Numbered from the stretch's first letter, positions 426 through 39,101 are shown. The stretch: DNA of 64,000 nt from Alphaproteobacteria bacterium (GCA_017559525.1 JAFYRI010000012.1:15164-79163); one strand, 5' to 3'. A program made the numbers and translations. The notes: a model not told the origin generated them from the sequence alone.

Positions 426-520
426 ATAAAAATCCTTTGTCAGTTATTTTTGTTATTATATATTTTTTTGTTTAAAAGTACAAGAGAAAAAGAATATATT
501 TTTCGATGTCCGAAAAATCA

Positions 521-549
521 TTGACAAAAATAATGCAATATGATATAAT
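521..549 (+). promoter_or_regulatory. sigma70-type promoter (TTGACA-17 nt-TATAAT) upstream of the GNAT array
   Basis: Perfect consensus -35 TTGACA at 521-526 and -10 TATAAT at 544-549 with a 17-nt spacer. It lies inside the first track ORF, which argues for a downstream start at 581. Confidence 0.5.
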
Positions 550-580
550 TTTTCCACTATCTTATGCGAAAGGGAATTTG

Positions 581-1192
581 ATGATTGAAAATTTTGAAAT
601 GCCTTCTGAAATTAAAGGTAAGCGTATTTGTTTAAAGCGTGTAGAGGAAAATGATACAAATGCAATTAAAAAAGTTTGTGATGCAATTTTTAGCGAGGGA
701 ACACTAAAGCGAATTGAAAAAGTAATGGGATATTTTTCTGATGGACCTGATGATATTCCGTCTTTAGTTCGTTCTTTGAATCGTACATTTGAAAAAAATG
801 GTTTTAATTATTTTATTTTTAAAGATGATAAAGTTATTGGTCAAATTAATGGTTTCCCGTGTCAAGGTTATCAACGTTCAGTTGTGACGATTTGGGGATG
901 GATTTCTGATGCAGAAATGCGTAAAGGATATATGAAAGAGGCAATTAAGTTATTGGAAAATGAACATTTTTCAAGAAGTTTAATGTCTTTAGAAATTTCT
1001 GCTTATAATAATTTAGCGGTTCATGCTTTATGTCATTCTTTAAATTTTTATGGCGCGGGTGAAAGAACGCCTTATCAATATTTTTATCGCCATCGCTCTG
1101 ATTGGATGTCAGAACAAATGCCACAACGTATTATTCATCATGATGACATTAGTCAAGCTCATTCTCAGAAACAAAAGGGAGAACGTTCATAG
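581..1192 (+). CDS. GNAT family N-acetyltransferase (RimJ/RimL-like), paralog 1 of 5
   Basis: Shares motifs with the four downstream paralogs (R[IV]xLKR, W[IL]xxxxxGKGYM). Start chosen at MIENF, downstream of the promoter at 521-549. Confidence 0.6.
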   Translation: MIENFEMPSEIKGKRICLKRVEENDTNAIKKVCDAIFSEGTLKRIEKVMGYFSDGPDDIPSLVRSLNRTFEKNGFNYFIFKDDKVIGQINGFPCQGYQRSVVTIWGWISDAEMRKGYMKEAIKLLENEHFSRSLMSLEISAYNNLAVHALCHSLNFYGAGERTPYQYFYRHRSDWMSEQMPQRIIHHDDISQAHSQKQKGERS

Positions 1193-1789
1193 ATGTCTGT
1201 GATGTTCCGATATAATACAAATTGTTGGCCTGACAAACTTGTTGGGCCTCGTGTTGTATTAAAAAGATTGGAGCCAACACAAGAATATGCTGATTTATTT
1301 CACCAAATAATCAGCAATAATACAAAACATTTAACTGATAGTTTTGCTTATTTAGTGCATCAAATTAATTCATCGCAGGCTGCTTTGTCCTTTTTAACAG
1401 CCGCTTATCAAGATTTTCTTTATGAAGCGCGAGATGATTATGGTATTTTTGTCGGAAATGATTTTGTTGGTGCGGTTTTGGTTTGGGGAAAAAGACGCAC
1501 AGATCGTGAAATTATGTATTGGTTAAAAGAAGAAGCTTGTGGTTATGGTTATATGCATGATGCTTTGGATTTAATTGAACAAGAACATGCTAAATGTGCG
1601 CCTCATCATATTTTATTTGCTAATGTTAATGCTAAAGCAAGGGCTTCTGCAGCTTTATTAACAGCACGTGGTTATAATTTGGATGGACTTTTCTTTTTTA
1701 AACGACCAATGTCTAATGAATTGTCTCGAACGGTTATTCAGTCTGCGATGCATTCAATGCCGAAAGATGAGGGGCGAATATATGGATAA
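1193..1789 (+). CDS. GNAT family N-acetyltransferase, paralog 2
   Basis: PRVVLKRLEPTQEYA and YWLKEEACGYGYM motifs. The ATG follows the stop of paralog 1 immediately. Confidence 0.6.
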   Translation: MSVMFRYNTNCWPDKLVGPRVVLKRLEPTQEYADLFHQIISNNTKHLTDSFAYLVHQINSSQAALSFLTAAYQDFLYEARDDYGIFVGNDFVGAVLVWGKRRTDREIMYWLKEEACGYGYMHDALDLIEQEHAKCAPHHILFANVNAKARASAALLTARGYNLDGLFFFKRPMSNELSRTVIQSAMHSMPKDEGRIYG

Positions 1790-2354
1790 AATATTAAGGT
1801 CAAATCGTATTCGCTTAGAAATTTTGTCACCATTGCCGGAATATGCCGAACAATTGTCTGAAATTATTTGTCGTAACCGAGATCATTTAGACATGTGGCG
1901 AGGTGATGTTTTAAAATATGAAACATCCGAGTTATCGTTTTATAAATTGTTAATGGATAATTACTATTATGAACGTAAAGAAGGATATTTTTATCATATT
2001 TTTAAAGGTAAAAAAATTATTGGCCATATCAGTTTGTTGTCTTCTGGTAAATTTTGGGAAACATCTTATTGGTTAGATAAAGAATATACAGGACAAGGGT
2101 ATATGCGAGAGGCTTTAAAAACCTTGGAAAATGCTTGGTTTCAAAAAAGTACAGCGCCTATTACTGTTCTTATAAATCCCGAAAATACACCTTCTTTGAA
2201 AGTTATTCATAAAATGGGATATACTTTGTTTGGGCAGAACAGATATTTGAAAAATTTTGCTATGTTTATGAGGGAACAAAATGTACATCAACCATCATTA
2301 ATTATGTCAGCAAATCAACAAATTTTTACACAAAATCAACATGAGAAGGATTAA
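1782..2354 (+). CDS. GNAT family N-acetyltransferase, paralog 3
   Basis: Start at MDKILRSNRIRLEIL overlaps the stop of paralog 2 by 8 nt (translational coupling). YWLDKEYTGQGYM motif. Confidence 0.6.
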   Translation: MDKILRSNRIRLEILSPLPEYAEQLSEIICRNRDHLDMWRGDVLKYETSELSFYKLLMDNYYYERKEGYFYHIFKGKKIIGHISLLSSGKFWETSYWLDKEYTGQGYMREALKTLENAWFQKSTAPITVLINPENTPSLKVIHKMGYTLFGQNRYLKNFAMFMREQNVHQPSLIMSANQQIFTQNQHEKD

Positions 2355-2356
2355 AG

Positions 2357-2923
2357 ATGATACCATATCCAACCGTAATAGAAGGAACTCGTATTGTGTT
2401 GAAAATGTTATCTCCAACACCGACAAACGCACAAATGGTTTGTGATTTGGTGAAAAAAAATACAATGTATTTATATCCTTTTTTGAAAGAAGTGGTAACT
2501 GATGGTAAAGATGTATTAAATGCCTTACATCACTTGCGTCGGGCTGATAATTTATGTCGAGAAGATGATACGGCATTGTATTATATTTTTCATCAAGGAA
2601 AAATGGTTGGCGCAATTGAGGCTTTGATGTATCCTCATGAACGGGAGTTGCGTTTTTGGTTGGATCATGATGCAAAAGGTAAAGGATTGATGCGTGAAGC
2701 TGTTTTATTGATGGAAAAGATGTTATTTGAACGTAATCAAGATAGAATTATTTTAGGAATTTTAGATAGCAATACGCCATCACTTAAACTTGCAAAGCGA
2801 TTAGGATATACTGAAGATTGGGAAGGTTATTTCGAAATAACATATGATAAATTTCATATGTTAAGAAAAAATAATTCAAGAAAAAGTTTAACTAATTTAT
2901 ATGATCGAACAAATGGTAGATAA
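2357..2923 (+). CDS. GNAT family N-acetyltransferase, paralog 4
   Basis: TRIVLKMLSPTPTNA and FWLDHDAKGKGLM motifs. Confidence 0.6.
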   Translation: MIPYPTVIEGTRIVLKMLSPTPTNAQMVCDLVKKNTMYLYPFLKEVVTDGKDVLNALHHLRRADNLCREDDTALYYIFHQGKMVGAIEALMYPHERELRFWLDHDAKGKGLMREAVLLMEKMLFERNQDRIILGILDSNTPSLKLAKRLGYTEDWEGYFEITYDKFHMLRKNNSRKSLTNLYDRTNGR

Positions 2924-2935
2924 AGGAAGTATATA

Positions 2936-3517
2936 ATGTATCCTAGTAGAATTATAGGACGAAATATTGAGTTGAAAATTTTACCGGCAACTGAGGAAAA
3001 TGCTGAAAAGGTTTATTATGTTATTCAAAATAATAAAGAATATTTGTCTCAATTTTTTCAACGATTGGTTTCAGCTTTTGATAATAAAAAACAGGCATTA
3101 GATATTTTAAAATTTGATGAAGAACAAAGATGGCTTAATAATTCTGTAAATTATTATATTTTTTCAAAGAATCAGTTGATTGGTGAGATTGCTGCCGATT
3201 GGTCTAGGCAAAATAGTAGAGCTTCTATTATTTATTGGCTGGATAAATCTCATGTTGGAAAAGGATATATGTCTCAAGCTTTGAAAATGATGGAAAAGAA
3301 CCTGTTTTTAAATGGGTATTCTGAAACGCGTTTGTATATTGATGCTGCCAATTGGCGTTCTGTAAATGTTGCAAAATACAATTACTATCAATTAAGTGAT
3401 GATGGTAATTATTATTTTAAAACACGTCAAATGTATAATAATCCTCGTCAACCAATATGCCATAAACAAGATTATATTGGACGTTTTTGTCGTTTGTTTC
3501 GGACGCGAAATAGATAA
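2936..3517 (+). CDS. GNAT family N-acetyltransferase, paralog 5
   Basis: RNIELKILPATEENA and YWLDKSHVGKGYM motifs. Confidence 0.6.
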   Translation: MYPSRIIGRNIELKILPATEENAEKVYYVIQNNKEYLSQFFQRLVSAFDNKKQALDILKFDEEQRWLNNSVNYYIFSKNQLIGEIAADWSRQNSRASIIYWLDKSHVGKGYMSQALKMMEKNLFLNGYSETRLYIDAANWRSVNVAKYNYYQLSDDGNYYFKTRQMYNNPRQPICHKQDYIGRFCRLFRTRNR

Positions 3518-3538
3518 CAGAAAATCGTTATAAAAAAA

Positions 3539-3566
3539 ACCGCCGTAAAATCGGGCGGTATTTTTA
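3539..3566. terminator. bidirectional rho-independent terminator between the GNAT array and rpsU
   Basis: A-run, then hairpin CCGCCG...CGGGCGG, then T-run. Sits between convergent genes. Confidence 0.45.
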
Positions 3567-3584
3567 TATAACTTAGAAAAAACC

Positions 3585-3800
3585 TTAGTATCCTTCGCTA
3601 TGGTAGCGTTTTCTAGCCATTTTACGAGAACGACGAATGCATTCAGTTGCTTTTCTGGCTTTTTTTTCAGATGGTTTTTCATAATATCTGCGCAATTTCA
3701 TTTCACGGAAGCTGCCTTCTCTTTGCATTTTCTTTTTTAAAACACGCAAAGCTTGTTCGATATTATTATCATGAACAACGATAGTAACTATGGTACTCAC
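3585..3800 (-). CDS. rpsU: 30S ribosomal protein S21
   Basis: 71-aa basic protein ...[30 protein letters not shown], typical of S21. Confidence 0.85.
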
Positions 3801-3890
3801 ACTCCTTTCGGACTATCTAATGGTTTATTTGTGCGTGCATTCTATCATATATTTTATATGAATGCAAGCATTTTTTTGAACTAGTTAAAA

Positions 3891-4205
3891 TTATCTGCGT
3901 CTTGGACCATATAAGGAAACGGGTTTTTCCAAAATACTCATTAATTTTTGAATATTTTCTTGTCCCGTCACACGAATGGAGGTGCTTTGAGAAGTAACAC
4001 CTGAGCAAATCGTATTTGGAATGCTGTTTTTATCTAATTCTGTGCGAATAAAATCAATTTGCTCTTCGTTTAAATGATCCACATTCATACGGCTTAAACT
4101 TTGTCCCTTTGAATCGAAATCAGCAATCCAATTGGTTTGTTTTTTCCATTCACAAAGTTTGGAATCGGACATACTTATTTTTGAAATAATAGAATTATTT
4201 TTCAT
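3891..4205 (-). CDS. hypothetical protein
   Basis: ORF with a GGAG RBS before MKNNSIISK. No recognisable family. Confidence 0.35.
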   Translation of the reverse strand: MKNNSIISKISMSDSKLCEWKKQTNWIADFDSKGQSLSRMNVDHLNEEQIDFIRTELDKNSIPNTICSGVTSQSTSIRVTGQENIQKLMSILEKPVSLYGPRRR

Positions 4206-6330: not shown

Positions 6331-6388
<58 letters not shown>

Positions 6389-6406
<18 letters not shown>

Positions 6407-19404: not shown

Positions 19405-19778
19405 TGGTCAGATGGTCGGATAATCGCTGGCATATTATAATGGTATGTTGGAGGAAAGTCCGGGCTTCACGGGAATACGGTACTGGATAACGTCCAGGCG
19501 GGGTGACCCGACGGATAGTATAGCAGAAAGCAAACCGCCGATGTTTTATATCGGTAAGGATGAAACGGCGAGGTAAGAGCTCACCGCATTTTTGGTGACA
19601 AAAGTGGCTAGATAAACCCTACCGGAAGCAAGACCAAAGTAAGGCAAACCAAGGTTTACCTTGTTCAACGAGAATTCCTGCTCGGTTGCCGCTAGGTAGG
19701 TCGCTAGAGGGTTTTAGTAATAAAGCTCCCAGACGAATGATTATCGATAACAAAACCCGGCTTATAGATCATCTGACT
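19405..19778 (+). ncRNA. rnpB: RNase P RNA, bacterial type A
   Basis: Universally conserved GGAGGAAAGTCCGGGCT, AGCAAACCGCC, GGTAAGAGCTCACCG, ACAAAACCCGGCTTATAG blocks. 5'/3' ends pair as the P1 helix (TCAGATGGTC/GATCATCTGA), followed by a T-run. Confidence 0.85.
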
Positions 19779-19794
19779 TTTTTTTATATCAATT

Positions 19795-20475
19795 TTATTG
19801 TGGAGTACATGTATAACATTGGGAACCATATTCGGTTTTTGAGCCTGTTATTGCAGTATGTCCGGATGGACAATTTTTGACTTCACTTGATGGACATTCA
19901 TCATTTAAACAAACAGCACAAATGACGCCACATGCTCTAATACCTGTATCTTTTTGAACTTCGGTTGCGGAGCAATCTGGATTAATGCTGCCACTTGTGC
20001 ATCGTTCGGTGCAAGCATAATCTGTGATATTTTCAAAATTTGAATCTTGTTTTAAATCATTTGCGAATACAAAGGTTAATGTTGTTTTATCTAGGCAATT
20101 AGTAATTTTGTTTAGTCGTGTATTATTTTGATAGATTCCACTAATGATGGGGGGAGTATTAGATACCAAATTTTGACATACACTTTTATCAATATTTTTA
20201 ACTTTTAAACTAAAATAATTTGATGGATTAGGAGGAAAAGTTTCTACTGTAATTGAGGTATTTGTTAATTCAAATAAATTTGCATTTTTTCCGGTTAACA
20301 GTTGTTGAGATACAGTTGTTGCTAATATATTTAATTCATTGATTAAATTGTTTGTTTTGTGCTGTGTCATTGCATAGGAATATCCAGCAATTGCACTGAT
20401 TGACAAAACACCTATAATCGCTAATACACCTAACATTTCTGTCATAGAACGACCAAGTTGATTTATATTTTTCAT
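19795..20475 (-). CDS. type IV pilin-like protein (class III signal peptide) with a Cys-rich C-terminal domain
   Basis: N-terminus QLG/RSMTEMLGVLAIIGVLS...Y aligns with the prepilin consensus (G-1, E+5, AIIG at 11-14, Y24). C-terminal 75 aa contain 12 Cys. Confidence 0.6.
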   Translation of the reverse strand: MKNINQLGRSMTEMLGVLAIIGVLSISAIAGYSYAMTQHKTNNLINELNILATTVSQQLLTGKNANLFELTNTSITVETFPPNPSNYFSLKVKNIDKSVCQNLVSNTPPIISGIYQNNTRLNKITNCLDKTTLTFVFANDLKQDSNFENITDYACTERCTSGSINPDCSATEVQKDTGIRACGVICAVCLNDECPSSEVKNCPSGHTAITGSKTEYGSQCYTCTPQ

Positions 20476-21205: not shown

Positions 21206-21250
21206 TCTTTGGCGTGGACAAAATCCCCACTTTTTGTGTGGGGATTTTTT

Positions 21251-21667
21251 TTACTTAACATTATCAATTTTTAACGTTTCAATTAATTTTCCTAATGTTT
21301 TCATTTCGTCATAAAATGAACTGAAAATTGAGGTGTCTGTTACCGAATTTTTAATGGTAAAGGTATCAAACAAATTGCCCGTATGAACTCCTAATAGAGC
21401 GTATCCGTTAAAAAACGCCATATCAATACGTGATGCATTAAAAACTTTTTTTAATTCCTTTAATCGTTCAATAAAGGCAGGTGTTAAAATGTATCTGATT
21501 TCAATTTGATTATTGGAATAGATTTGATATTCATTCATAAATTCGCCATCTTCAATTTCAACTGATTCTAGTCCGGCATGGTTTTTATCAAAAATATTTA
21601 GTTCGTCAAATATAGTTTGGTTATTACAATTTATTGCAACTGAATATCCAGTAACTTTTTTATGCAT
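21251..21667 (-). CDS. hypothetical protein
   Basis: 138-aa ORF. Overlaps the upstream ORF by 37 nt in another frame. Confidence 0.3.
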   Translation of the reverse strand: MHKKVTGYSVAINCNNQTIFDELNIFDKNHAGLESVEIEDGEFMNEYQIYSNNQIEIRYILTPAFIERLKELKKVFNASRIDMAFFNGYALLGVHTGNLFDTFTIKNSVTDTSIFSSFYDEMKTLGKLIETLKIDNVK

Positions 21668-22194
21668 TTTGATGGCAATAAAAGATCCTGAAAAAATAAT
21701 CTCATTTTTTTTCTGTTTTTTTGTTTTATTGTTGCTTCCAATAAGGAAAATTCCGTATCTCCGAATTGACCTTGAAACGATTCATCTGTTTGGAAAGTAT
21801 TCCAAGATTGATATATTTTGCTTCTTTTTATGTAATCTTCCGTAATGAATGTTTGTTTGCTTTTAAAATTTCCCAAATAAGAAAAACATAATGGTAAAAT
21901 TTCATCTTTACGTTGTTTGACGTAGCGGTTGATAAAAAAACGTATGATTATTGTTGGTATGGCGCTAAAAACAAAGATTGTTTCAAGCTCATCTTTATGA
22001 AATAAATTATATTTTATTTCGGCTAAAGACAAAATGACAAATATAATAACACCAACAATATATCCGAATGTTTGTAGTGATTTTAATTTTGCTCTTTTAT
22101 GCTCATATCTATATAATCTGGGGACAATTTTACTTTCGACAAACGACATAAATACGCCTTTGGGTGTTAGGTATGATTTATCTTTATTTTCCAT
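21631..22194 (-). CDS. hypothetical membrane protein
   Basis: Start at MENKDK chosen to avoid a 118-nt overlap with murD. One or two TM helices. Confidence 0.35.
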   Translation of the reverse strand: MENKDKSYLTPKGVFMSFVESKIVPRLYRYEHKRAKLKSLQTFGYIVGVIIFVILSLAEIKYNLFHKDELETIFVFSAIPTIIIRFFINRYVKQRKDEILPLCFSYLGNFKSKQTFITEDYIKRSKIYQSWNTFQTDESFQGQFGDTEFSLLEATIKQKNRKKMRLFFQDLLLPSKCIKKLLDIQLQ

Positions 22195-23464
22195 GTGCCA
22201 TCCATAAATTAATGTTGTTTTTAAAATCAGCTCCACGTTCTTCGAAGTTTTTATACATATTATAACTTGGGGCTGCAGGAGAAAGTAAAACAACTCCGCC
22301 AACCGGCGTAATGGTTAATGCTTTTTGGACAGCCTCTGCCATTGTACTACAAGAATGTACTAAAATTTTATTTTTTTGGGCTGTATTGATAATTTTTCTG
22401 CCTGTATCCGGCATTGCAATGACGTATATCGTTGGATGAGTTTTAATATAGTGAATTAATTCGCTAAAATCTTGTCCTCTGTCTTCACCACCAACAATTA
22501 AGGTGATGGGTTTGGTCTGTCCAATGGCTTTTAAAGCTGCAATGGCGGTTTCGGGGGTTGTTGATATACTATCATCAATAAATGTTAATCCAACTTTTTG
22601 TTCAATAACTTGTAATCTGTGGGGTAGGGCTTGAAATGTTTTGAATGCCTGTTCACAAGACATTAAGTCTAACCCTAATTTTTTAATAATTGTCAAAACG
22701 GCACACGCATTTTTATGATTATGCTCGCCAGTTAAGTTTAAGCTAGCACAAGGGAATAATTGTTGTGTGTTATCATAAAACCATTTGCCATCAGAATGAA
22801 TATCATCATTAAAATAGGTGATATTTTGAAACTTTTGATTTGCATCAGTATATGTATGTGTGTTTTTATCCAACATATTAAGCACTTGATTTGATGATTG
22901 TGCGATCATATTCAGTTTGTCTTGATAATATTTATTATGTGATCCATGCCAAGGTAAATGCTCTGGATATAAATTAACCAATACGCCAATATCTGGATTC
23001 CCAATGAAATCGGCGCATTGATAACTGGATAATTCGGCAACGATGTAATCGGTATCTGTGTCAATTAAATCCACTAATGGAAGACCAATATTGCCGCCTA
23101 AAACAGTCTTTTTTCCTAGCGCTAATAATGTGTGAGCCAATAAAGACGAGGTCGTGCTTTTGCCTTTTGTCCCCGTTACAGCAATGGTGGTGGTGTTTGG
23201 ATTTTTATTGGCAAAGAATAAATTTGTGCCAGATGTAACGATAATACCGTTTTGTTGTGCTTGTGTAATTTCGGGACGGTATAAAGATACACCGGGGGAT
23301 TTAATAATGATGTCACAATTTAAAATTTCATGTGTATTTTCTTCACTAATTTGAGTGATAGATATCGGATGAGCATGTTTTGAAATGGCCTGTTTTGCAC
23401 TCAGTCCTTCTTTCCCCATTCCCCAAATGCCAATACGTTTATTATTTAAATTGGTCCATAACAT
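22184..23464 (-). CDS. murD: UDP-N-acetylmuramoyl-L-alanine--glutamate ligase (MurD family; possibly the L-Glu-adding MurD2 type)
   Basis: Mur ligase P-loop VTGTKGKSTTSSLL. N-terminal Rossmann GMGKEG. Mur ligase C-domain. Confidence 0.8.
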   Translation of the reverse strand: MLWTNLNNKRIGIWGMGKEGLSAKQAISKHAHPISITQISEENTHEILNCDIIIKSPGVSLYRPEITQAQQNGIIVTSGTNLFFANKNPNTTTIAVTGTKGKSTTSSLLAHTLLALGKKTVLGGNIGLPLVDLIDTDTDYIVAELSSYQCADFIGNPDIGVLVNLYPEHLPWHGSHNKYYQDKLNMIAQSSNQVLNMLDKNTHTYTDANQKFQNITYFNDDIHSDGKWFYDNTQQLFPCASLNLTGEHNHKNACAVLTIIKKLGLDLMSCEQAFKTFQALPHRLQVIEQKVGLTFIDDSISTTPETAIAALKAIGQTKPITLIVGGEDRGQDFSELIHYIKTHPTIYVIAMPDTGRKIINTAQKNKILVHSCSTMAEAVQKALTITPVGGVVLLSPAAPSYNMYKNFEERGADFKNNINLWMAHGK

Positions 23465-24773
23465 TTTTAAATCTTTCCGGTATTAAATGATTACTAGAAG
23501 TGTTTAAAATATCATCTTGCGATTGAAATATTTTTTGTGATAACTTTGATATGATTTTATCGTTCATCCATTCATCTTTTTGTGCCAATAATGTGAATGC
23601 ATAACGGCACTCGTTTACCTCGCCAACACACTCAAAAGGTTTATGTCCACTGATGCCTAATAATTCTTCGTATCCTGTTAATTGGTTTTCGTCATCTAAC
23701 GGATTGTCTCCAATAGCCTTAATAAGAATGTCTTTATCCATAAACGGAGCCAAAATCAAAAAGACGAAACGGCATTTGTCGCAATTACCACACCAATGAG
23801 AAAGTCTTTTTGCTTCATCTAAGCGAAAGGCTTTGTTGCAACTGGTAAATACATCAAAATAGCTTTCACATTTTTGAGAAAATAATTTGGCAATATGCAT
23901 TTCAGATAGGGGGCGCAATAATGAAAAATATCTGAATGCCGGAGTGATGGATTGTGTCAGTTTATAAAAGTCTTGTTCAAAATCTAAAGATTTACTGTAT
24001 TGGTGGTTGATTTTATGACTGTTTAAAATCATATTTGGGCTGTTAGCAGAACGTTCACAAGACATTGCCACATACCTGTGGTCATATAAAATACCACTAA
24101 TCCACAACAAAAAGGCAATTAATCCCGTAATTGGAACATGACCGTTATATACCTTGCCCGTTTCATTTAATTGTAATAACTCGGGGGCTATTTTGCGTGT
24201 TAAGATAAGGTGATTTAATCCGCTTTTTTGTACACAGCTTGTAATTGGTTGTGGATTTCCAACGGAGAAAGCCGTTGCATTAATGCCAGCTTCTTTTAAT
24301 AATTCAATGCTGACACAAGAATCTTTTCCTCCACCAACTGGTACAAAGGTATTGTCGGATAATAGCAAATTGTGTGTTGTGATATGAGTATTTTTATCGA
24401 ATGGAAAGTTAATGTTTAATGAGACATTATTTTTAACCGAAAATTCTCCAAGGCCATTCAAATAGAATGTGTTGAAAAATTGAGCTTGTGTTTTTGTTAA
24501 GTGACCACTTTTAATTTGAATTTTGGGGCATAAAAATGCTTTGTAATAACTAATTCCAAAGGCAATATGAGTTAAAAATAAAATATCATTTAATGCTTTT
24601 TTTTGTATGTCATTTAGTTTAAATGGTGCATTGGGAAAGGTAATTGTTTCGGTGAATGTATATTTGTCAGTCGCATATGCCAAAGACAAAATGCCGTTTT
24701 GTTCATTGAAATCGTATTTTTTATAATAAAAAACCTTGCACAAAATCTTTTTTCCTTTTAGAATGTTGCCCAT
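23442..24773 (-). CDS. PP-loop ATP pyrophosphatase superfamily protein with a C-terminal Cys cluster; candidate MurL-like partner of murD
   Basis: VPVGGGKDSCVSIELL (SGGxDS PP-loop) and HWCGNCDKC cluster. The 3' end overlaps the murD start by 23 nt. Confidence 0.5.
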   Translation of the reverse strand: MGNILKGKKILCKVFYYKKYDFNEQNGILSLAYATDKYTFTETITFPNAPFKLNDIQKKALNDILFLTHIAFGISYYKAFLCPKIQIKSGHLTKTQAQFFNTFYLNGLGEFSVKNNVSLNINFPFDKNTHITTHNLLLSDNTFVPVGGGKDSCVSIELLKEAGINATAFSVGNPQPITSCVQKSGLNHLILTRKIAPELLQLNETGKVYNGHVPITGLIAFLLWISGILYDHRYVAMSCERSANSPNMILNSHKINHQYSKSLDFEQDFYKLTQSITPAFRYFSLLRPLSEMHIAKLFSQKCESYFDVFTSCNKAFRLDEAKRLSHWCGNCDKCRFVFLILAPFMDKDILIKAIGDNPLDDENQLTGYEELLGISGHKPFECVGEVNECRYAFTLLAQKDEWMNDKIISKLSQKIFQSQDDILNTSSNHLIPERFKNVMDQFK

Positions 24774-24823
24774 GTTTCAAACATACTATATGAATTTTTA
24801 ATTTTTTGCAAAGGATAATTGTA

Positions 24824-35878: not shown

Positions 35879-36046
35879 ATGATAGGGCAAGCATTAGAAA
35901 TCACGCTTATTGGCATGGGAACAGTTTTCTTTTTTTTGCTGGTATTAATTTGTGTTTTGAATATTTTACGTATATGTACGGTTAAAGGAAAGCGAGATTT
36001 ATCTAAAATTGCTGCAGCCATTGCATTTATAAAAAGTAAGGAGTAG
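35879..36046 (+). CDS. oadG: oxaloacetate decarboxylase gamma subunit (55 aa, absent from the ORF track)
   Basis: RBS AAAGGAG. MIGQALEITLIGMGTVFFFLLVLI single-TM peptide typical of OadG. Stops 5 nt before oadA. Confidence 0.55.
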   Translation: MIGQALEITLIGMGTVFFFLLVLICVLNILRICTVKGKRDLSKIAAAIAFIKSKE

Positions 36047-36051
36047 GGGAA

Positions 36052-37851
36052 ATGGTCAAAAAGGGTAAAAAGAAAATATCCTATATGTGTACGGCATTTC
36101 GTGATGGATTTCAATCTGTGTTTGGTGCCCGTGTCTTGTCAAAAGATTATATGCCAGTGGTAGCTGAAGCAGTTAAGGCTGGTATGACGAATATTGAAGC
36201 TGGTGGTGGGGCATCATTTCAAGCTGCTTTTTTCTATAACAATGAAAATGCTTTTGATGTAATGGATGAATTTCGCAGGGTTTGTGGTCCAAAAGTGAAT
36301 TTGCAAACGCTTGCACGTGGTGTGAATGTTGTGGCTCTTGATTCTCAAAGTTCTAAGATGATTGATTTGCATGCTAAAATGTTTAAAAAACATGGCATGA
36401 GTACTATTCGGAACTTTGATGCTTTGAATGATCCAAATAACTTAATTTTTAGTGCAAAATGTATTAAAAAAGCCGGATTAAAGCATCAATTATGTGTGTC
36501 TATGATGTCATTGCCTCCGGGATGCGAAGGTGCTCATACACCTGACTTTTATGAAGAAACACTCAAAAAATTTATTAAAGCTAAAATTCCGTTTGATTCG
36601 TTGTGTTTTAAAGACGCTTCCGGTACAACGGTTCCGGCGGTTGTGTACGAAACAATAAGACGTGCCAGAAAATTGGTAGGTGATAAAGTCCCATTGGAAT
36701 TCCATTCGCATGAAACAGCCGGTGCTGGATTGGCTTGTTATATGGCTGCTGTTGATGGTGGTGCCGATATTGTGGATTTATCCTTGGCACCTGTATCCGG
36801 CGGTACATGTCAACCGGATGTGGCAACGATGTGGCATGCTTTACGTGGAACGGATTTTGAATTAGATTGTGATATCGATGCGATTATGCGTGTAGAAGAT
36901 CATCTTAAAGATGCGCTTTCTGATTACTTTATGCCCCCTGAAGCTTTACATGTTGAACCGCAAATTCCTTGGTCCCCAATGCCAGGGGGGGCTTTGACAG
37001 CTAATACGCAAATGCTTAGAGATAACGGCTTGATGGATAAATATGGTGAAATTATTAAGGCGATGGAAGAAGTGGTCCGTAAGGGTGGTTTTGGTACTTC
37101 CGTGACACCGGTATCTCAATTTTATTTCCAACAAGCATTTAACAATGTGATGAGCGGTCCGTGGAATAAAATCGCCGATGGTTATGGTAAAATGGTATTG
37201 GGTTATTTTGGTAAAACACCTGTCGCTCCGGATAAGAAGGTGGTCAAAATTGCCTCTGAACAATTGGGATTAAAGCCAACGACTAAGAGTGTTTTGGAAA
37301 TTAATGATAAGAATGAGAAAAAATCTCGTAAACATTATGAAAATATGTTGAAAGAAGCCGGTTTGCCGATTACAGATGAAAATGTGTTTATTGCGGCTGC
37401 TTGTGGGGATAAGGGAATTACATTCTTACTTGGTAAAGCCAAAGTTGGTGTGCGTTATAAAGAAAAACAAGCATCATCTACACCGAAACAAGATACATAT
37501 AAAATTACAGTATCCGGTGAAACATTTGATGTCAAGTTAAATGGTAATACGGCAACAGTAAATGGTGTAGATTATCAGGTATCACTAGATGATGCTGTGG
37601 CACAAATATCTGCTGTTCCAGCTCAAACCACAGGTGTAGCACAAACAATTAACGCCGGTACACCGGGGACAATTACGCAAGTGCTTGTTAAATCAGGTGA
37701 TGTAGTTAAATCTGGTCAAACATTATGTGTGATTGAAGTGATGAAAATGGAAACAGAGGTCAAGGCTTTGTCTGATGTAACTATTACAAATGTTTTTGCA
37801 ACAAAAGGGGAACAGGTGGTCGCAGGCCAAAAACTGTTTGAGGTCAAATGA
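36052..37851 (+). CDS. oadA: oxaloacetate decarboxylase alpha subunit (carboxyltransferase plus biotin carrier domain)
   Basis: N-terminal pyruvate-carboxyltransferase TIM-barrel domain. C-terminal biotinyl domain with [12 protein letters not shown] (AMKM biotin attachment motif). Confidence 0.85.
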
Positions 37852-39101
37852 GTAAAGCCAGAGAATTATTACAATGGACGTTATATGCATTAGGTCTTTG
37901 TGCCGTTGCATTTATATTATCCTACTTTATACCGTCAATTGGTTCTGTTATGAAACAAACTGGAGTGTACCAATTATTTACTCCAATAACGCCTAAAGGA
38001 TTAATTTTGCCTCTTGGGTTTGGTCAAATCATTATGATTGGCATTTGTTTGGTGTTGTTGTATTTGGGGATTGTTAAAAAGTTTGAACCATTATTACTGT
38101 TGCCGATTGCATTTGGTGGTATTTTATCTAATGTACCAGGAACGGGATTAACGGAACCTGGTGGACTTTTGTATGTTTTATATCATATGGGTATTGAAAA
38201 TGGCTTATTTCCCTTGTTGATTTTTATGGGAGTAGGGGCCATGATTGATTTTGGTCCAATGCTTGCTAATCCTAAGACCGCATTGCTCGGTGGGGCAGCT
38301 CAATTTGCGATTTTTGGAACTTTTTTGGGGGCAGTTACATTAAGTAAGTATATTCCATTTTTAGATTTGTCTTTGCCACAAGCCGCGTCTATTGCTATTA
38401 TCGGCGGAGCTGATGGCCCAACATCTATTTTCTTGGCTTCGAAATTGGCTCCTGAATTGCTTGGGGCGATTGCAGTTGCTGCTTATTCCTATATGGCATT
38501 GGTACCAGTTATTCAACCGCCAATTATGCGTGCTTGTACAACGAAACAAGAACGTCTTATTGAAATGCAACAATTGCGTAGTGTATCCAAAAAGGAAAAA
38601 ATTATTTTACCAATTGTTGTGGTTTTGCTAACGGCTTTATTTGTGCCAATGGCATTGCCGTTGGTGGGGATGTTGATGTTCGGTAATTTGTTAAAAGAAT
38701 CTGGTGTGGCAGATAGATTGGCCGATACAGCTGCGAATAGTCTTATTAACATTGTTACAATCGTATTAGGATTATCTGTTGGATCAAAAATGTCTGCTGA
38801 GTTATTTTTAACATCCACGACTTTAGCTGTGTTATTCTTGGGGGTTATAGCTTTTAGTATTGGTACGGCAAGTGGTGTGTTGATGGCAAAATTGTTGAAC
38901 TTATTGCCTGGTGCAAAAATTAATCCGTTGATTGGTTCAGCTGGTGTTTCAGCCATTCCAATGGCAGCTCGCGTATCTCATAAATTAGGTCAAGAAGAAA
39001 ATCCAAATAATCATTTGTTAATGCATGCAATGGGGGCAAATGTATCAGGCTCTTTGGGGTCTGCCATTGCCGCCGGTATTTTGCTTGCTTTATGTAGTTA
39101 G
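37848..39101 (+). CDS. oadB: oxaloacetate decarboxylase beta subunit (Na+ pump)
   Basis: Polytopic membrane protein, OadB/GcdB/MmdB family. Start overlaps the oadA stop. Confidence 0.85.

Follow-up and report, generated by a model that had tools for sequence, protein, structure and literature searches.

A MurL/MurD2-type gene pair as a probable route to peptidoglycan D-glutamate in an uncultured alphaproteobacterium from the ruminant gut

The glutamate racemase MurI and the epimerase MurL both supply the D-glutamate stereocentre of peptidoglycan but are unrelated in fold and mechanism. MurI acts on free glutamate by a cofactor-free two-thiol racemization, a reaction that is reversible and independent of ATP. 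The MurL/MurD2 bypass was discovered in Xanthomonas oryzae in 2017 (reviewed in PMC5808125, PMC8788868). In the published enzymology of this route the ligase MurD2 adds L-glutamate, and MurL then performs a one-way L-to-D conversion in which one ATP is used and AMP is released (PMC5808125, PMC8788868). The MurD2/MurL carriers studied so far are without D-glutamate-forming genes (PMC8788868). In this article, we describe a gene pair in a stretch of 64,000 nucleotides (nt), termed the window in the following (GCA_017559525.1 JAFYRI010000012.1:15164-79163), of an uncultured low-GC alphaproteobacterium (about 35% GC) from a ruminant gut metagenome. Judged from its sequence, the pair very probably constitutes a working MurD2/MurL route. 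The bypass is already known and is represented by curated models in NCBIfam and Pfam, and the window does not hold a new kind of system; the host lineage, in contrast to that of the X. oryzae-type MurL, lies outside the published distribution.

Both genes of the pair are located on the minus strand, and the 443-aa gene is transcribed first, followed by the MurD-like gene. The murL open reading frame (ORF) covers positions 23442..24773 and has a maximal length of 443 aa, while the murD2 ORF (22184..23464) encodes 426 aa. The ATG start codon of murD2 begins at 23464 and the last base of the murL TAA stop codon is at 23442; the two frames differ, and the genes overlap out of frame by 23 nt (23442..23464, minus strand). 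This overlap had been noticed in a first-pass annotation of the window and was confirmed, as the identical 443/426-aa pair with the same overlap is also present on three other metagenome contigs processed with an independent gene caller. The closest species loci show a comparable overlap of murL and murD2 of about 20 nt. The arrangement suggests that translation of the two genes is coupled. The extent of the upstream ORF given in the first-pass annotation was likewise correct; its start, however, probably lies further inside, at the TTG codon at 24743, which leads to a protein of 433 aa. This start is used in the GenBank entry MBR5130710.1, is preceded by the Shine-Dalgarno-like run AAGGAAAA, and agrees with the consensus of the murL homologues, which begins with MCK.

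The identity of the upstream protein follows from profile comparisons. It matches the NCBIfam model NF041275, which describes UDP-N-acetyl-alpha-D-muramoyl-L-alanyl-L-glutamate epimerase (MurL), with an E value of 1.4e-124 and 416 bits over profile positions 7-444 of 447, and no other NCBIfam family was matched at E <= 0.01. A database record of the identical product carries the Pfam domains PF26299 (MurL_N) and PF26298 (MurL_epimerase_C). By sequence, the protein is thus a full-length MurL homologue, and it shares with X. oryzae-type MurL a collinear homology over the full length, the same two Pfam domains, an invariant GGGKDS motif together with a cysteine cluster, and a MurD2-type ligase as genomic partner. 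The pairing of MurD2 with MurL, originally a guess from motifs, is therefore supported by the NF041275 match and the MurL Pfam domains as well as by the chirality residues of the ligase and the tree described below. In GenBank, MBR5130710.1 is named "endonuclease domain-containing protein", although no endonuclease family is detectable in the product with either Pfam or NCBIfam.

The MurL family comprises 2,539 representatives of 50%-identity clusters at E <= 1e-3 and 1,142 at E <= 1e-30. Conserved positions were derived from an alignment of 48 diverse homologues, the members of which show 34-49% identity. The PP-loop-type motif GGGKDS (residues 147-152; 24318..24335, minus strand), which had been read as SGGKDS with one letter wrong, is invariant in these 48 sequences and is kept in 146 of the 150 best 50%-cluster representatives. 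The previously noticed CxxCxxC cluster is real and has the sequence CGNCDKC (residues 328-334; 23772..23792, minus strand); it is found in 148 of the same 150 representatives. Together with C312 it forms the arrangement C312...C328-x2-C331-x2-C334 (23772..23840, minus strand), in which all four cysteines are invariant in the 48-homologue alignment. A fifth invariant cysteine, C382, is located in the sequence PFECVGE (residues 379-385; 23619..23639, minus strand), where P379 and V383 do not vary either, and conservation reaches at least 90% for E381 and G384. Further residues invariant in the 48 homologues and present in the MurL of the window are H212, E240, N256-H257-Q258, K261, E266, E291, and E388. 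We infer that C382 is a candidate for the acid/base residue that exchanges the C-alpha proton.

MurL was said by its discoverers to lack "known conserved domains" (PMC5808125, PMC8788868), and the literature searched contains neither a MurL structure nor a link of MurL to QueC or the PP-loop. An AlphaFold2 (AF2) model of the window protein, calculated from 70 homologues, reached a pLDDT of 91.7 and a pTM of 0.92. In this model GGGKDS is placed between a beta-strand (residues 139-145) and a helix (residues 150-161), which is the topology of a PP-loop, and the core of the protein shows the features that define the PP-loop superfamily, namely a Rossmann-like alpha/beta fold with an SGGxDS-type P-loop after strand 1. 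A Foldseek search of the PDB with the model returned QatC, QueC, and Cap9 on top (E values of 2e-5 to 8e-4) and, further down, MnmA, TtuA, NAD synthetase, argininosuccinate synthetase, and GMP synthetase. The single MurL sequence gave no matches in the PDB, and the family profile matched there only the PP-loop of TtuA (E 0.004). The earlier description of the protein as a PP-loop adenylating enzyme is upheld by the model, the Foldseek matches, and the TtuA match.

QueC-family PP-loop ATP pyrophosphatases adenylate a carboxylate, and QueC binds zinc through a C...CxxCxxC motif. MurL and the QueC/Cap9/QatC proteins have in common the P-loop after the first strand, a C...CxxCxxC cluster in the same place, and an ATP-to-AMP chemistry on a carboxylate. 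The differences are nevertheless considerable, since MurL is only 12-17% identical to these proteins, its likeness to QueC is limited to about 170 core residues with 13-15% identity, and MurL is enlarged by about 125 residues that form an additional N-terminal domain and by about 100 residues of a helical C-terminal extension. The substrate of MurL is a UDP-muramyl dipeptide, and the reaction is an epimerization instead of the formation of an amide or nitrile. In an hhalign comparison the MurL profile and E. coli QueC aligned over the PP-loop only (34 columns, E 0.022, probability 2%), and the relation of MurL to QueC therefore rests on the predicted structure. No QueC model was matched by MurL in Pfam or NCBIfam, so that the relation is one of working alike and not of membership. 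On the basis of the model, MurL may be an elaborated QueC-type PP-loop enzyme that adenylates a carboxylate and carries a QueC-like four-cysteine (zinc) site, with C312, C328, C331, and C334 as the putative ligands of a QueC-like zinc ribbon. A carboxylate adenylation of the QueC type would explain the use of ATP and the formation of AMP by MurL.

On account of the same features, the upstream protein could be taken for a PP-loop enzyme of the QueC, TilS, TtcA, or TtuA type which modifies tRNA or nucleosides and merely happens to lie beside murD, as it possesses the PP-loop motif and the CxxCxxC cluster, as QueC, Cap9, and QatC are its best structural matches, and as the family profile touches the PP-loop of TtuA. 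This possibility is effectively refuted by the full-length match to MurL, and hardly any credence can be given to it. The QueC likeness stays confined to the core at low identity, the profile alignment with E. coli QueC does not extend beyond the PP-loop, the additional N- and C-terminal domains are specific for MurL, and a comparison with the tRNA-modifying families gave no match for TilS, TtcA, or QueC at E <= 0.01 in NCBIfam and Pfam.

The partner of MurL is a genuine MurD-family ligase, as originally proposed, and the window contains no other MurD-like gene. It scores 332.7 bits against TIGR01087 (murD; cut-off 212) and contains the domains Mur_ligase_M and Mur_ligase_C. TIGR01087 cannot separate MurD from MurD2, because it also matches the ligase part of proteins in which MurL and MurD are fused. 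The distinction was therefore based on individual residues, the states of which were taken from an alignment with E. coli MurD (NC_000913, b0088) and MurD proteins of the PDB. The residues D182, K348, A414, and L416 of E. coli MurD correspond to E197, R358, P433, and F435 of X. oryzae MurD2 (PMC8788868). The double exchange E197D/R358K turns the X. oryzae enzyme into a D-glutamate ligase, the exchange K319T enables E. coli MurD to accept L-glutamate, and the P433A and F435L variants of X. oryzae MurD2 keep their stereospecificity (PMC8788868), for which reason the latter two positions are a marker rather than a determinant.

In the ligase of the window, the chirality determinants are in the MurD2 state: Glu168 within YPEHL (22961..22963, minus strand) corresponds to E. 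coli Asp182 and X. oryzae Glu197, and Arg329 within GGEDRG (22478..22480, minus strand) to E. coli Lys348 and X. oryzae Arg358. Ile300 within DDSISTT (22565..22567, minus strand) takes the place of E. coli Lys319. The sequence Pro399-Ser400-Tyr401 within SPAAPSY (22262..22270, minus strand) is equivalent to E. coli Ala414-Ser415-Leu416, with X. oryzae Pro433 and Phe435 at its outer positions, so that both the proline at the Ala414 position (P399) and the aromatic residue at the Leu416 position (Y401) are present. Among MurL-linked ligases generally, position 182 (E. coli numbering) is Glu in 67 of 71, position 319 Ile in 68 of 70, position 348 Arg in 67 of 69, position 414 Pro in 67 of 68, and position 416 Tyr or Phe in 67 of 67. 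E. coli and P. aeruginosa MurD show D/K/K/A/L at these five positions; in all three canonical MurDs that were compared, position 182 is D or T and position 319 is K. Two MurL-linked ligases deviate from the common pattern, and these may be intermediates or have another specificity: a Saccharibacteria ligase encoded upstream of murL (L042, 2688..3962) has D/F/R/P/F and clusters with canonical MurDs, and another one (L043, 5344..6693) has C/I/V/A/F.

With X. oryzae MurD2 the window ligase thus shares Glu at the Asp182, Arg at the Lys348, Pro at the Ala414, and an aromatic residue at the Leu416 position as well as the location of the gene immediately beside murL, and its identity to MurD2 proteins of the Lysobacterales is 35-37%. 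Compared to canonical MurD (E. coli b0088; PDB 1UAG/2JFF), it is also a three-domain Mur ligase in which the catalytic and ATP/Mg residues are kept, with K115, N138, E157, H183, K198, T321, S415, and F422 (E. coli numbering) all retained. It differs from the E. coli enzyme, to which it is 27% identical, by the exchanges D182E, K319I, K348R, A414P, and L416Y, by a shorter N-terminal domain, and by the position of its gene, which is not between mraY and ftsW. The sequence evidence supports the assignment of the protein as an MurD2-type ligase that would add L-glutamate.

A phylogenetic analysis leads to the same grouping. In a neighbour-joining tree of 71 sequences, in which E. coli, P. aeruginosa, and S. 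agalactiae were the only canonical references, the window ligase is nested in a gut-alphaproteobacterial clade of MurL-linked MurDs and apart from the three canonical proteins. The canonical trio and L042 are recovered as a clade of their own in 77 of 100 bootstraps, and in 94 of 100 if sequences of the Candidate Phyla Radiation (CPR) and L043 are allowed to join. A rooted test of monophyly failed, with L042 and CPR sequences placed near the canonical clade, and the unrooted topology was used. The identity of the window ligase is 35-42% when it is compared with MurL-linked MurDs of other phyla, but 27-31% with the canonical proteins.

In GenBank, the enzyme is named a D-glutamate ligase. If this were correct, the enzyme would be an ordinary MurD that adds D-glutamate, and its MurL-like neighbour would do another job, for example adenylate another carboxylate. 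The two GenBank names, the TIGR01087 score above and the NF041275 score below the respective cut-off speak for such an interpretation, which we nonetheless regard as very improbable. TIGR01087 is not discriminating, the five discriminating positions are all in the MurD2 state, and the E197D/R358K swap, i.e. the reversal of two of these states, is what makes MurD2 a D-Glu ligase (PMC8788868). Furthermore, linkage and fusion to MurL are conserved across phyla, and the endonuclease name is without any family match in Pfam or NCBIfam. The GenBank names of both proteins are accordingly misleading, and an L-glutamate-adding ligase paired with MurL is the preferred assignment.

The distribution of the pair was analysed in a GTDB scan with one genome per species; the species of the window is not among the representatives, the best of which matches with 59% identity. 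MurL relatives are present in at least 591 GTDB species. Among the relatives listed, the closest are metagenome-assembled genomes (MAGs) of gut and rumen Alphaproteobacteria with 44-59% identity, and MurL also occurs in Emcibacter, Stellaceae, Acetobacteraceae, Lysobacterales, Solirubrobacterales, Micromonosporaceae, Sericytochromatia, and several CPR phyla. Of 80 species loci that were fetched, 77 carry murD along with murL, nearly always immediately downstream and on the same strand; among the three loci without a MurD match, two lie on contigs that break off at murL, and the third is L032.

In two loci the pair resides among cell-wall genes. The order murF-mraY-(enolase-superfamily gene)-murL-murD2-ftsW is found in an Alphaproteobacteria MAG (L031, 478..7765), and mraY-murL-murD2-ftsW-murG in a Roizmanbacteria chromosome (L085, 2816..8706). 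By comparison with the E. coli gene order, the pair occupies the slot of murD in both cases, which argues for a housekeeping enzyme there. The additional gene of L031 between mraY and murL (3004..3981) encodes a member of the enolase superfamily (MR/MLE) and may be an enzyme of the L-Ala-D/L-Glu-epimerase type.

Gene fusions provide a further type of linkage. Proteins of fusion length (799-914 aa) make up 13 of 150 listed MurL representatives (P0241, P0252, P0254, P0264, P0277, P0283, P0306, P0311, P0320, P0337, P0341, P0346, and P0358), and MurL-MurD fusions were confirmed in all six that were scanned (P0241, P0252, P0264, P0311, P0341, and P0346). The order is MurL-MurD in five of them and MurD-MurL in P0311, and the junctions look natural and are in frame. 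Among the 50%-cluster representatives, the one nearest to the MurL of the window (P0241, 54% identity) is also a fusion of this kind, and the 23-nt overlap of murL and murD2 in the window is therefore one step away from a single polypeptide. MurL-MurD fusions are not mentioned in the literature searched, nor are the gut and rumen Alphaproteobacteria, the wide distribution, or the replacement of murD within a division and cell wall (dcw) cluster; only the two reviews of the discoverers were found. The fusions and the in-dcw replacements argue for a housekeeping route, and MurL/MurD2 may be a major route to the D-glutamate of peptidoglycan and not a rare exception confined to Xanthomonadales and Micromonosporaceae.

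The gene surroundings were inspected on about 75 kb of the contig, consisting of the window, 3 kb of one flank, and about 8 kb of the other. The absence of a dcw cluster around the murD-like gene, as claimed in the first-pass annotation, is correct for this contig: neither MraY (PF00953), FtsW (PF01098), MurG, nor another Mur ligase occurs among its Pfam-annotated genes, and the same holds true for Asp_Glu_race and class-IV aminotransferase (Aminotran_4) domains. Searches by tblastn with E. coli MurI, MraY, MurF, FtsW, and MurD retrieved only the single MurD-like gene, and no sequence similar to E. coli MurI. These results bear on the question of whether the pair, although functional, is redundant, with a canonical dcw murD, and also murI or a D-amino-acid transaminase, located elsewhere in the genome; its role would then be an accessory one in salvage, under stress, or for a second type of muropeptide. 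The location outside any dcw cluster, both here and in all closest loci of the gut clade, is compatible with this idea, as is the fact that the view of the genome is limited to one contig. We consider both the redundancy and the accessory role unlikely, because the MurD2/MurL carriers studied lack D-Glu-forming genes (PMC8788868), because L031 and L085 have the pair in place of murD between mraY and ftsW, and because no second murD or murI was found in the window, in its flanks, or within +/-4 kb around the 80 other loci. That the pair is the only source of D-glutamate of the organism is, on balance, rather more probable than the opposite.

For the preferred reading, a MurD2/MurL route, the following sequence of events is proposed. 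The genes would be co-transcribed, and with stop and start codon overlapping, both enzymes would be made together. MurD2 would ligate L-glutamate, not D-glutamate, to UDP-MurNAc-L-Ala with conversion of ATP to ADP. MurL would bind ATP at its QueC-type PP-loop GGGKDS and adenylate the alpha-carboxylate of the terminal L-glutamate, with AMP and pyrophosphate as products. Adenylation would acidify the C-alpha proton, and the centre could be inverted by a base of the enzyme or via an oxazolone. After loss and return of the C-alpha proton the adenylate would be hydrolysed, and MurE would then take over. What the analysis itself establishes is the homology of the pair, its signature residues, the conservation of linkage and fusion, and the PP-loop fold. 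The specificity for L-glutamate, the formation of AMP from ATP, and the one-way direction from L to D are ascribed to the window pair by analogy to its orthologues; we infer which carboxylate is adenylated, which residue serves as base, that the four cysteines bind zinc, and that the pair is the sole D-glutamate route.

Several points weigh against this reading. The NF041275 score of 416 bits falls below the trusted cut-off of 700 bits; since this model was built for Xanthomonadales and MurL-MurD fusions from other lineages also reach just 368-527 bits, the cut-off gauges lineage, not family, and is not defining. The identity of the window MurL to MurL of the Lysobacterales is only about 36-41%, and the enzymes assayed are all from outside the Alphaproteobacteria. 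The residue equivalent to position 416 is Tyr in the window and Phe in X. oryzae; Tyr is common to 40 of 67 MurL-linked MurDs. The MurD tree rests on just three canonical sequences, the negative results for murI and a second murD cover about 75 kb of one contig, and the chemistry following adenylation is a proposal even for characterized MurL. Taken jointly, the statements that MurL is of the QueC type, that the route is major and widespread, and that it is the sole source of D-glutamate in the gut alphaproteobacterial clade appear to us moderately likely to hold.

The assignment has consequences for annotation, because with an endonuclease and a D-glutamate ligase as GenBank names, metabolic reconstructions of gut and rumen Alphaproteobacteria would report a missing D-glutamate source and a wrong MurD substrate. 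The comparative data extend the known range of the bypass well past the genera in the literature, and the QueC-type PP-loop fold offers a concrete mechanistic frame for an enzyme reviewed as being devoid of domains. The route has been proposed as a target for narrow-spectrum antibiotics, and its taxonomic breadth, which includes commensals, bears on this proposal.

Upstream of murL, a promoter-like sequence TTTGCA-16-TATAGT with 9 of 12 matches is present at 24785..24812 (minus strand). As promoter-like sites in the region are no more numerous than in shuffled sequences, it is weak evidence and only suggestive of a murL promoter. An 11-bp GC-containing hairpin at 21220..21248 (not assigned to a strand) lies between a converging DUF3137 ORF and lemA. 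This strong hairpin comes after the last minus-strand ORF, where it probably terminates transcription from both directions and thereby marks the end of the minus-strand unit. The ORFs between murD2 and the hairpin (187/223 aa and DUF3137) were considered as parts of the system and excluded, because no other locus has homologues of them beside murD2.

These ORFs seem to represent a DUF3137 membrane protein split into two overlapping ORFs (21251..22302, minus strand; junction at about 21700..21725), a 187/223-aa ORF rich in transmembrane segments and a second one of 138 aa, which matches positions 29-138 of PF11335. The frame is interrupted at A7/A8 homopolymer runs, read-through in the other frame yields a continuous protein, and lemA converges on the split gene. 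As the split is identical in three contigs from different runs, it reflects a pseudogene with a frameshift, a site of slippage, or an assembly error common to all three.

Beyond lemA, the window contains a bacterial RNase P RNA of class A (19408..19780, plus strand; 297.6 bits), which is adjoined by a Cys-rich ORF of 226 aa (19795..20475, minus strand) that lacks a Pfam match and has a hydrophobic N-terminus resembling that of pilins. Further RNA genes on the plus strand are a small signal recognition particle RNA (53942..54036), tRNA-Thr(TGT) (6331..6406), and tRNA-Pro(TGG) (11942..12018). Directly after the latter follows the stretch of lowest GC content of the window (12001..14000; 25% versus about 35%), which includes a 513-aa ORF (12246..13787, minus strand) without Pfam match and may be a small island integrated at tRNA-Pro. 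At 506..3517 (plus strand), five short genes on the same strand are found, four of which encode paralogous GNAT acetyltransferases (Acetyltransf_3/1). An operon for a Na+-pumping oxaloacetate decarboxylase (gamma subunit, alpha subunit with biotinyl domain, and beta subunit) is located at about 35880..39101 (plus strand), and a pyruvoyl-dependent arginine decarboxylase is encoded together with an amino-acid permease at 47438..49557 (minus strand); both fit an anaerobic lifestyle in the gut.

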